64,000 nt of DNA from Candidatus Atabeyarchaeum deiterrae (GTDB lineage: Archaea > Asgardarchaeota > Atabeyarchaeia > Atabeyarchaeales > Atabeyarchaeaceae): positions 256,001 through 320,000 of the forward strand of contig CP147780.1 of NCBI GenBank assembly GCA_037310415.1. Direction: 5' to 3'. A model generated the notes under the pieces. It was given only the letters and a program-made list of their open reading frames with translations. It ran no database searches and was not told the origin of the DNA. Of the stretch, positions 10,760-35,876 are shown piece after piece (position 1 is the first letter of the stretch; every line of letters starts with the position of its first letter). The translations under genes and the position numbers were made by a program.

Positions 10760-10856
10760 GGGCCCGTGGCCTAGTCAGGATAGGGCGTCAGCCCTCTATG
10801 AACAATAATGCAGGGAAAGCTGATGGTCGTGGGTTCAAATCCCACCGGGCCCGCCA
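10760..10856 (+). tRNA. tRNA-Arg(TCT) with 19-nt intron at 37/38 (10799-10817); encoded CCA
   Basis: Acceptor GGGCCCG/CGGGCCC, D-loop GGA (A20 Arg identity), anticodon stem TCAGC/GCTGA, anticodon TCT at 10795-10797, T-loop TTCAAAT, G73-CCA. Confidence 0.9.
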
Positions 10857-15216: not shown

Positions 15217-15392
15217 GCGGAGGTAGCCAAACAGCGAAGAGCGCTGGGCAACGCCTGGTCAAAGGCGCAGGAATGAGGGTCCTGTTCCGTAGGGATTATG
15301 GTCCGCTCAACTAGCGGATAATCCCGAATCGAGGGTTCAAAACCCGAGGCAAAAACTCTACCTCGATGGTGAAACTCCCTTCCTCCGCACCA
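15217..15392 (+). tRNA. tRNA-Leu(GAG) with three introns (15231-15252, 15297-15328, 15342-15375); encoded CCA
   Basis: Removing the three inserts gives an 88-nt archaeal-type tRNA-Leu: GCGGAGG TA GCCAA|GCCTGGTCAAAGGC G CAGGA AT GAG GG TCCTG TTCCGTAGGGAT|TC GAGGG TTCAAA|T CCCTT CCTCCGC A CCA; each insert forms a BHB-like motif. Confidence 0.9.
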
Positions 15393-23546: not shown

Positions 23547-25337
23547 TTGAGAAGTAAAAGCTCCAGAACACTTTTGCTTGCCTCGCTGGTGTTGTGTCTA
23601 GTCACATTCTCTTGCATAGGGCATGCTGCTGTGATACCCACTTCTAGCCTCGCTACAAACAGTCCGTATCATAATGTCGATTCTGGAAATTACGCATTGT
23701 TTTCCCAGCGTGGACCTGTACCTCCCGACGAAAACGCGTCACTGCGCAATACTCATGTGGATCGAGTAATAAGCGTAGGAGACTACGGTCTTGTGACCGT
23801 GACGGATACTGTCAATGTCACCAATGTAGGAAGCTCAGTAGCGACTTCCTGGGTGTTTTACCTTCAACCCGATGTTTTTGGCAAACTGACGTACATTGCG
23901 GCATCTGCTGGAGGAACCAGCTTGGACGTGGTTGCAGCCCAGACTTTCTCGTCTTTCATTGGTATGAAGGTAAGATTAGTAGGGTTGCCTAGTGGCGGAC
24001 TCGCACCGGGCGCGTCCATCGAAATCAGTTTGGTTCAGGAGTTTTATGGACTGGTTAGAATATCATCTGGGAGCCTAGCACTGTACTACTACAAGTTCAT
24101 TGTCTCACCATACTTCACTACAATGCACAACACAACTCTCGAAGCTCCTTCTGTCGCTACTGCATTCTCTGGAGGTTCTGTATCACCTTTCAACTCTACC
24201 TTGCTAGGTACTTCCTCGGATGGTGGTTACACTATAACCGCTACTACATCCTTGATTGACGTAATCAGCATTGACCGCAGTGTTGTGCTCGACATTGGAG
24301 GCTATCTCACAACAACCGAAACACACCATGTGAAGAACCTTGGACCAAATTCCTTGCAGATTATCAATTTTACGATTCCGATTACCGAGATCAACGCGAG
24401 CCTGGAAGTTCGTGACAACTCAGGCAAACTACCGGCAACGGTAGTCGGAAATCTAGTCACGGCCCAATTCCCATACCCGGTACCAGAGAACAGTACATAC
24501 ACCTATCAAGTTACCTACAAGACACTGACAGTTGATTACAGAACTGTTGAAGGTGGACTTGAGGTCATCACAATGAGTCCCGTCACCGTGTACGGAGGTA
24601 TTGTGGATTTGGAGACAGTCTCTGTGACTTTGACGCCTGACGCAATTTTGTTTTCAGCTGGCCCAGCAGCCAATCATTACACTGTGACCAGTGGCAATAG
24701 TATAGTGATTTCCTTCACATTCAGGAACGTTACAATCCTGAATACGGGGAACATCGAATTTCGATTTGCTGAGAGTCTTGCCCAGACTCTCGCCCGTCCA
24801 ATTCTATTCACCCTAGGGGTCTACATAATAGGAATAATCTATGTAGCGATCAGAAGACTCCGTCGCAAGGCAGCTCCAGGAGGAGTCAAAAGAGAAGGTA
24901 TTGCAAAGGAACGTGAGCTTGCAGGAGCAATAAATGATTTCTGCACAGACTACGAGGAGAAAGTTGCTCTCACACTGGAAATAGAGGAACTTGGGAAAGA
25001 CAGAAGCAAGGGCAGAGTCAGCAAAAGAGCCTATGTGGAGAGAATGAATGTTGCCAGGAGACGACTCGCCATGCTTATGAATCGTCTCAGTGAACAAAAA
25101 GTGAAAATATCTGCGGTAAGCAGGAGGTATGCGACCATGATCAAGCAACTTGACACGTACGACGAAGAGCGGGAGAGCGCCAGAGCAAGCCTGGAGAATC
25201 TGGAGTTTAGAAGGCGACAAGGCAAAGTCTCAGGTGACGTGTATAACCGCCTCAAATATGATATCACAAAGAAGATTGAGAAAGCCACATCAGGAATCGA
25301 CAGGACAATAGTCGAATTACGACAGGAAGCCGTTTAG
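23547..25337 (+). CDS. Ribophorin-I (OST1)-like type I membrane protein
   Basis: Signal peptide, two beta-rich luminal repeats (V-R-I---DYG---VTDTV-V-N / IDRSV---GG----ETH-V-N), many NxS/T sequons, single TM, C-terminal cytoplasmic helical bundle. Confidence 0.65.
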   Translation: MRSKSSRTLLLASLVLCLVTFSCIGHAAVIPTSSLATNSPYHNVDSGNYALFSQRGPVPPDENASLRNTHVDRVISVGDYGLVTVTDTVNVTNVGSSVATSWVFYLQPDVFGKLTYIAASAGGTSLDVVAAQTFSSFIGMKVRLVGLPSGGLAPGASIEISLVQEFYGLVRISSGSLALYYYKFIVSPYFTTMHNTTLEAPSVATAFSGGSVSPFNSTLLGTSSDGGYTITATTSLIDVISIDRSVVLDIGGYLTTTETHHVKNLGPNSLQIINFTIPITEINASLEVRDNSGKLPATVVGNLVTAQFPYPVPENSTYTYQVTYKTLTVDYRTVEGGLEVITMSPVTVYGGIVDLETVSVTLTPDAILFSAGPAANHYTVTSGNSIVISFTFRNVTILNTGNIEFRFAESLAQTLARPILFTLGVYIIGIIYVAIRRLRRKAAPGGVKREGIAKERELAGAINDFCTDYEEKVALTLEIEELGKDRSKGRVSKRAYVERMNVARRRLAMLMNRLSEQKVKISAVSRRYATMIKQLDTYDEERESARASLENLEFRRRQGKVSGDVYNRLKYDITKKIEKATSGIDRTIVELRQEAV

Positions 25338-25651: not shown

Positions 25652-25791
25652 GGAAGGGGACAGAAAATCGCACTTATCGCCCTTCTTATTTCAGTTAGTG
25701 TTTTCGCACATACGGGAAAGACGGATTCCCTCCCATGAAAGGGAATCCTCAGAAAATGATTTTAGACCGTGAGCAATATAGTCATTCAGGG

Positions 25792-25926
25792 AGCCCCGTG
25801 GTCTAGCGATCCGAAGTCTGAAGAGGACTTGGGCTGGAAGCCAATGATGGCGGGCTTTGGACCCGTTGACGGGAGTTCGAATTGTCCGACGAATTTGTGG
25901 AGACGAAATTCTCCCCGGGGCTACCA
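25792..25926 (+). tRNA. tRNA-Gln(TTG) with two introns (25809-25839 at 18/19; 25882-25909 at 59/60); encoded CCA
   Basis: Spliced 76-nt product AGCCCCG TG GTCTAGCG|GCCAATGAT G GCGGG CT TTG GA CCCGT TGAC GGGAG TTCGAA|T CTCCC CGGGGCT A CCA; A1-U72 typical of archaeal tRNA-Gln; BHB helices CTAG/CTGG and TTCG/CGAA. Confidence 0.92.
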
Positions 25927-26091
25927 TTTTTCTTCTGCCTTGATCGGTCAACTTTCTGGACGCATCACAGGTCTCTGCATAAAGCATTAAATACGGTTAG
26001 CAAAGGTACAAATTACTGTCCATCAGAAGCTCCAATCTACCGATCTCGTGGGGTTGTGATATTCGGTCAGAACCTAAGGATATGAAGCCAT

Positions 26092-35105: not shown

Positions 35106-35876
35106 ATAACAGCAAATATGATCATGAAGGAGAGCAGGGATGAAAAATTCGCATTCAACCGATCTGTTCAGTTAATTGCATCCGTATATATGACAAGCTT
35201 AGAGGTAAACTGTTCGCGCCACTCCACTGCACTCTACGTTAGGAGCCCTAACATACGTTTCTCCAGAATCATCAGCTGTCTGGGAAACCCCTAGACAGTT
35301 GTAGCTAGTCTCTAAACGAGACCGATGCTCTATTCCTTCCTAGTAATCTCTGGATGGCTTGCCAAATATTATATAAGCGGAATTGGACACAGAACATACC
35401 TCACATTGATCTCCGCCTACAAGCGCACTCTATAGAGCAAAAGCATAAAGCTGAGCATTCTGGTCGACACGAAGAACGAAGGTGACGCGACAAAACCCCG
35501 CATCGATAGAGCTCTTCGAATGTCTCCGTGTGACAAGTCATAGTGGTCCGTGGGAAATCGGGCGATGGGAGCTGAGAAGATAGTCAAGAGCTTCGGAAAT
35601 CTGTTATTTGCAGTAGAGGACAACATGGACGCGGGCTCAGCCTTTAACAACGACGTAATGAATTCGACTCGAGAAGAAATATCTAATACAAAAGGTCACA
35701 GTTCCGTATCGCATTACGCTTTCATGAAGGTACTCAACACTTCTCACGATAATTCGGACTTTGGTTAGAGGGTATTCTACCTGTTTCTGACACTTGAGGA
35801 GGCGCTTACTAGTCTAAATACTTCATTGAAAACAGAAAGATTGAGCCGAATCTAGCCATGTGGCGGCGTTACGGTC

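Follow-up and report, generated by a model that had tools for sequence, protein, structure and literature searches.

Does the locus at 25792–25926 encode a working tRNA, and where would its precursor have to be cut? Positions are those of the window, the whole 64,000-nt stretch of the Candidatus Atabeyarchaeum deiterrae genome (contig CP147780.1, 256001–320000) that was analysed. The first-pass annotation had read the locus as a cryptic tRNA-Gln(TTG) with two introns. It is confirmed here as a real gene for a CAA-reading tRNA-Gln(UUG), interrupted by two small introns. Unspliced, the locus was passed over by ARAGORN, whether or not the intron option was used, and by Rfam RF00005 (E up to 10). 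For these two tools the word 'cryptic' is apt; it does not hold for tRNAscan-SE, which found the gene, and a published table already counts two introns in it (Valentin-Alvarado et al., 2024).

Gene anatomy

Within 25792–25926 the order is AGCCCCGTGGTCTAGCG, 31 nt, a 42-nt block (GCCAATGATGG ... GGGAGTTCGAA), 28 nt and TCTCCCCGGGGCTACCA. The features of the locus are as follows.

25760–25766, + strand: TATA-like box TTTTAGA, a putative archaeal promoter; read from the sequence, 26–32 nt before the start of the mature tRNA
25792–25808, + strand: exon 1, with the 5′ strand of the acceptor stem, U8, G9, the 5′ strand of the D stem, and A14, G15, C16 and G18
25809–25839, + strand: intron 1, 31 nt, separating G18 from G19, with a relaxed HBh′ motif; placed by pairing and by the register conserved in orthologs
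25840–25881, + strand: exon 2, from G19 to A59, with the anticodon TTG, the 5′ strand of the T stem and T54–A59; from ARAGORN, orthologs and paralog
25882–25909, + strand: intron 2, 28 nt, at site 59/60, strict hBHBh′ motif; placed by pairing, and equal to the tRNAscan-SE intron 281882–281909
25910–25926, + strand: exon 3, with T60, the 3′ strand of the T stem, the 3′ strand of the acceptor stem, A73 and CCA (25924–25926); from ARAGORN, orthologs and paralog
25927–25931, + strand: run of five T, a putative archaeal terminator; read from the sequence, directly after CCA

Boxes of the TTTAA/TTTTA type also precede the orthologs, by 30–40 nt, and many of the genome's other tRNA genes.

Removal of 31 and 28 nt had been claimed to leave a canonical 76-nt tRNA-Gln(TTG), and this was borne out. 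ARAGORN reads the 76 nt of the joined exons as tRNA-Gln(ttg) with a normal cloverleaf, as befits an archaeal class I tRNA. The acceptor stem has 7 bp, the D, anticodon and T arms are all formed, and the seven bases of the anticodon loop, CTTTGGA, include U33 and a purine in position 37. The variable loop is 4 nt long, and the gene supplies its own CCA. The product regains G18G19, T54-T55-C56 and A58, its D-loop being AGCGGCCAA and its T-loop TTCGAAT. The same genome holds an intron-less paralog, tRNA-Gln(CUG), at 1238460–1238535 (58.4 bits against RF00005), to which the spliced product is identical at 75 of 76 positions; the sole difference is base 34 of the anticodon. The match to this intron-less gene locates each of the four splice sites to the nucleotide. 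Taken singly, exon 1 (17 nt) agrees exactly with the start of the paralog, and exon 2 is 98% identical to it.

Orthologs were compared in the family's two other species, Promethearchaeati archaeon SRVP18_Atabeyarchaeia-1 (CP147779.1; G001) and the MAG LC30 (G002). Together with the present genome they supply four copies from three species: one here, one in G001 and two contigs of G002, one of them clipped by a contig end. Exon 1 is matched exactly in both relatives.

The gene is the only one for tRNA-Gln(UUG) in the genome, and in long ORFs CAA codons match CAG codons in frequency (7298 versus 7217). CAA reading in the host, Atabeyarchaeia-2, would therefore hinge on two splicing events in this sole gene. 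A second candidate, called 'tRNA-Gln(ttg)' by ARAGORN at 35441–35652 of the genome, was rejected; it is Ile(TAT) in the published table. None of the runs that contain the stretch is on record as RNA. A run of the same study labelled as a metatranscriptome (X20) showed no match to the stretch, a result that is uninformative on expression.

Splice motifs and register of the introns

In the numbering used here exon 1 comprises positions 1–16 and G18, base 17 being absent. The D-loop of the product, AGCGGCCAA, has a single GG, which is split by intron 1, and the site is therefore 18/19. Likewise, the T-loop TTCGAAT is interrupted after A59, so that the site of intron 2 is 59/60. Both sites had been proposed at first pass (AGCG|GCCAA and TTCGAA|T), and both agree with the paralog and with the register of the orthologs.

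Intron 2 has the simpler motif. Its central helix pairs 25876–25879 (TTCG, positions 54–57) with 25904–25907 (CGAA) in 4/4 pairs; on either side of it is a 3-nt bulge, AA|T and AT|T, the two lying on opposite strands. The 5-bp T stem serves as the outer helix, and the inner hairpin is imperfect (1 bp, one mismatch, then 3–4 bp). With a 4-bp central helix and both flanking helices, the intron falls under the strict hBHBh′ definition, as its earlier description as a strict BHB had it. In the same register, the central helix has 4/4 pairs in G001 and 3/4 pairs in G002.

The helix (CTAG/CTGG) and bulges first described for intron 1 were also found as described, and the motif can now be classed as the relaxed HBh′ form. 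Its central helix joins 25803–25806 (CTAG, C12–G15) to 25834–25837 (CTGG) in 4/4 pairs; CG|A and AA|G form the bulges, and the intron also has an inner hairpin. In 4/4 orthologous copies the inner helix has 3–5 bp and the outer helix 0 bp. Lacking an outer helix, intron 1 stays below the strict hBHBh′ definition and belongs with the relaxed HBh′ form, which a review attributes to Marck and Grosjean (PMC4090602). With the outer helix missing, the 3′ splice site would rely on relaxed-motif recognition.

Three registers are possible for intron 1 in this genome, and the intron might thus be real but cut elsewhere, with exon 1 ending at A14 and exon 2 starting with AAGCC, or one base later with AGCC. 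Both alternatives retain 4/4 central pairs and a flanking helix here, and the minimum-free-energy fold of the precursor prefers a helix shifted by one base, which puts the register of intron 1 off by one. However, neither is common to all four orthologous copies, a property that only the register of the first-pass annotation has. The alternative products would moreover carry a D-loop without GG, unlike that of the paralog, and the tRNAscan-SE intron in Atabeyarchaeia-1 lies in the register listed above. We consider a cut in either of the other registers very improbable, and retain 25809–25839.

The first-pass annotation had further argued that both partners of the tRNA elbow are disrupted in the precursor. 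The inference is sound: G18 and G19 lie 31 nt apart, and C12–G15 and T54–G57 are paired with intron sequence.

Conservation in relatives and in metagenomes

The exon bases are 100% identical across the orthologs in G001 and G002. The introns of the orthologs occupy the same two sites with 42–66% identity, 13–25 of about 30 bases being shared, and their pairings are kept by pair-preserving changes. For intron 1, the central helix has 4/4 pairs in all four copies while its second pair switches between U-G and U-A. In the inner helix the second and third pairs are altered on both sides, from C-G to U-A.

Metagenome contigs give the same picture. In contigs of three related runs all substitutions and indels fall inside 25809–25839 or 25882–25909; the variant letters at intron 1 lie within the intron, and exon 2 has zero variant letters in the contigs of relatives. 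In contigs from intron-less relatives, similarity drops at 25840 and just beyond 25882. These runs are DNA and are therefore evidence of constraint, not of splicing. An exact scan of the metagenome contig collection with the 42-nt exon 2 gave no match.

Two ORFs overlap the locus, 25691–25987 (− strand) and 25769–25990 (+ strand). Neither has a Pfam match, and neither was accepted as a gene: a coding frame would not be expected to switch between conserved exons and divergent introns.

The inserts might also be retained, or the locus might be a decaying pseudogene, so that no working tRNA is made. We infer splicing of this gene from its sequence, and a 2026 preprint on such inserts speaks of 'intervening sequences', their excision being untested (Goswami et al., bioRxiv 10.64898/2026.10.13.758758). 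Against a dead gene stand the 76/76 exon bases that are identical in three species while introns and flanks diverge, the maintenance of the splice motifs through compensatory change, and the position of the gene as the sole one able to read an abundant codon, CAA. Retention of the inserts is opposed by the site itself, since 31 nt at G18/G19 would destroy the elbow. Loss of function by either route appears even less probable to us than a misplaced register, and we continue with a working gene.

Chance controls

Free deletion of two segments might by itself turn some DNA into a tRNA look-alike. Pairs of removable segments qualified if the central helix had 4/4 pairs, the bulges were 3 nt long and one or both flanking helices reached 3 bp; all such pairs were taken out in turn, and the products were passed to ARAGORN. 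At the locus these strict criteria left three accepted products, all of them Gln(ttg) and differing only in the register of intron 1. The same procedure gave a tRNA from 0/300 random 135-mers of the genome and from 0/300 shuffles of the locus. Relaxed criteria (3/4 central pairs) behaved otherwise: at another locus 66 of 2478 combinations yielded ARAGORN tRNAs, of many identities, and two deletions that yield a tRNA are therefore unsafe evidence if taken alone. For the present locus we give a chance look-alike no credence, in view of the strict controls, the 75/76 identity to the paralog and the conserved orthologs. The predicted gene rests on independent lines: paralog, orthologs, pairing, register, metagenome contigs and the need for the gene.

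Splicing enzymes and proposed maturation

The genome encodes RtcB and two EndA paralogs of 238 and 198 aa, at about 215.5 kb and 625.3 kb respectively, each with PF02778 and PF01974 domains. For the 238-aa protein the nearest match is 3P1Z_B, the catalytic subunit of EndA from Aeropyrum pernix (E 2e-46); the alignment covers the loop region near the N terminus as well as the GPGIDHAPFIVHA and VRKKF motifs, and the segment GYYGQPISIRKPKTFDFTCP aligns to A. pernix EndA without gaps. This segment may correspond to the CSL/L1 loop of the α subunit, with its conserved lysine (Hirata 2011; Okuda 2011). In the 198-aa protein the place of the catalytic His125 of M. jannaschii EndA is taken by a threonine, whereas the tyrosine and lysine are kept. 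The host EndA is thus predicted to be an (αβ)2 arrangement, with a catalytic α subunit and a structural β subunit that lacks the histidine. (αβ)2 EndA with an L1 loop cuts non-canonical introns and is present in Asgard archaea (PMC5829648).

What was observed is the anatomy of the sequence, its pattern of conservation and the enzyme genes; from these we infer transcription, the bonds cleaved, ligation and any order of events. Transcription would give a precursor of about 135 nt that carries both introns. Within it, the 3′-terminal part of each intron would pair with tRNA bases, that of intron 1 with C12–G15 of the D arm and that of intron 2 with T54–G57 of the T-loop, each time forming a 4-bp central helix. 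The (αβ)2 heterotetramer would then cut behind the second base of each 3-nt bulge, and RtcB would ligate the three exons into the 76-nt tRNA, with G18G19 and the T-loop restored. That the locus is a functional single-copy tRNA-Gln(UUG) gene, whose two-intron precursor would be spliced by EndA and RtcB, we hold to be highly probable.

Relation to published work

The gene and its two introns are already known (Valentin-Alvarado et al., 2024; PMC11291895, Nat Commun 15:6384). The host is Atabeyarchaeia-2, and the tRNA coordinates of its genome equal the 'Atabeyarchaeota_2' rows of Supplementary Data 4 number for number. The gene is tRNA no. 6 of the entry 'SRVP_Atabeyarchaeota_2_curated.FINAL', given there as Gln TTG at 281792–281926, which corresponds to 25792–25926 of the window. 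The table lists a single tRNAscan-SE intron, 281882–281909, which is intron 2, with the remark '2 introns observed (R2DT)'. For the ortholog of Atabeyarchaeia-1 (270172–270309) it gives introns at 270189–270222 and 270265–270292, with boundaries exactly as here. Coordinates of the D-loop intron of Atabeyarchaeia-2 are absent from the table and are set here as 25809–25839. These exact boundaries, predicted from the paralog and the orthologs, are the only addition that we make.

According to the same study, introns interrupt 92–95% of the tRNA genes of these genomes, often at non-canonical positions. The gene is ordinary for its lineage and carries little weight as a discovery. It is, rather, a clean worked example, in which an intron-less twin fixes the D-loop intron and three species show compensatory change. 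Its RNA, which combines both motif types, strict and relaxed, would also be a convenient substrate for a first biochemical test of an Asgard EndA.

Two further bodies of work bear on it. Goswami et al. (bioRxiv 10.64898/2026.10.13.758758, October 2026) report that tRNAscan-SE misses about 30% of inserts, mostly in the D arm, in three focal Asgard families, of which Atabeyarchaeaceae is one. Their 'hidden' sequences resemble intron 1: a D-arm insert with a BHB-type boundary that tRNAscan-SE leaves in the 'mature' tRNA. They too were found by way of a compact relative. The second body concerns Crenarchaeota. The review PMC4090602 describes genes of Thermoproteales and other Crenarchaeota that likewise have at least two introns, the 59/60 site, relaxed HBh′ motifs and an (αβ)2 EndA, and it traces non-canonical crenarchaeal introns of the BHB, hBH and HBh′ types to Marck and Grosjean (2003) and Sugahara et al. 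(2007, 2008). The present host differs in being an Asgard archaeon, of another phylum. In the text of the review 59/60 is among the intron positions named, whereas 18/19 is not. In the literature that was searched, no usable report of an earlier archaeal intron at 18/19 turned up.

Distribution of the introns

A break at 17/18 of the Gln query was found only in Atabeyarchaeaceae when 200 other Asgard genomes were sampled; in many of these, Gln genes are uninterrupted or broken elsewhere. The distribution, which comes from a sample and is unrooted, fits a gain of the 18/19 intron within the family.

The Gln(CUG) twin, intron-less in this genome, is interrupted by introns at 37/38 and 59/60 in G001 and G002, which belong to the sister genus. 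Either two introns were lost recently here, or two were gained there.

In another Asgard family (L004) the tRNA-Gln(UUG) gene carries two D-arm inserts at other positions (G011:C176:1–126). Interruption of the D arm of tRNA-Gln(UUG) seems to have arisen more than once.

A joint reading, in which the 18/19 intron was gained only in Atabeyarchaeaceae and the Gln pair records intron loss or gain, is in our judgement rather unlikely. If it were true, introns at 18/19 and 59/60 would make splicing precede every maturation step that reads the elbow. The Gln pair could then record a very recent loss of introns from a whole gene by way of a spliced-RNA copy, or a double gain. A kinship by transposition between intron 1 of this gene and intron 1 of a tRNA-Leu gene was tried and rejected; in a global alignment they share only GAAGAG and TGGGC, which is too little.

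Other genes of the genome and the window

The 43 tRNAs tabulated for Atabeyarchaeia-2 in PMC11291895 do not include Asp(GTC), Cys(GCA), Ile(GAT), Thr(CGT) or Ser(CGA), and Asp and Ile(GAT) are likewise absent from the entry for Atabeyarchaeia-1. We found a probable tRNA-Ile(GAT) gene that is missing from the table, at 459473–459658 of the genome (+ strand; L047:94–279), scoring 15.5 bits against RF00005. It likely has three inserts, of which one splits the anticodon (GA|T, 35/36), and its exon blocks are conserved in G001 (447829–448003) and G002. One combined BHB and ARAGORN solution gives Ile(gat); relaxed criteria also give many spurious identities here. Further tRNA genes are probably still hidden.

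Two other tRNA genes of the window deserve mention. At 10760–10856 ARAGORN calls Glu(ctc), which changes to Gln(ctg) when its intron option is on; removal of the published intron, 10799–10817, leaves tRNA-Arg(tct), in agreement with PMC11291895. For tRNA-Leu(GAG) at 15217–15392, removal of the three published tRNAscan-SE introns leaves 78 nt, which is short for class II. The published middle intron, of 42 nt, may include part of the variable arm.

Just upstream of the tRNA-Gln(UUG) gene, a 596-aa ORF at 23547–25337 (+ strand) has a weak match to Ribophorin I (PF04597, 26.7 bits). By this weak match it would be a homolog of an OST subunit, of a kind reported in Asgard archaea.
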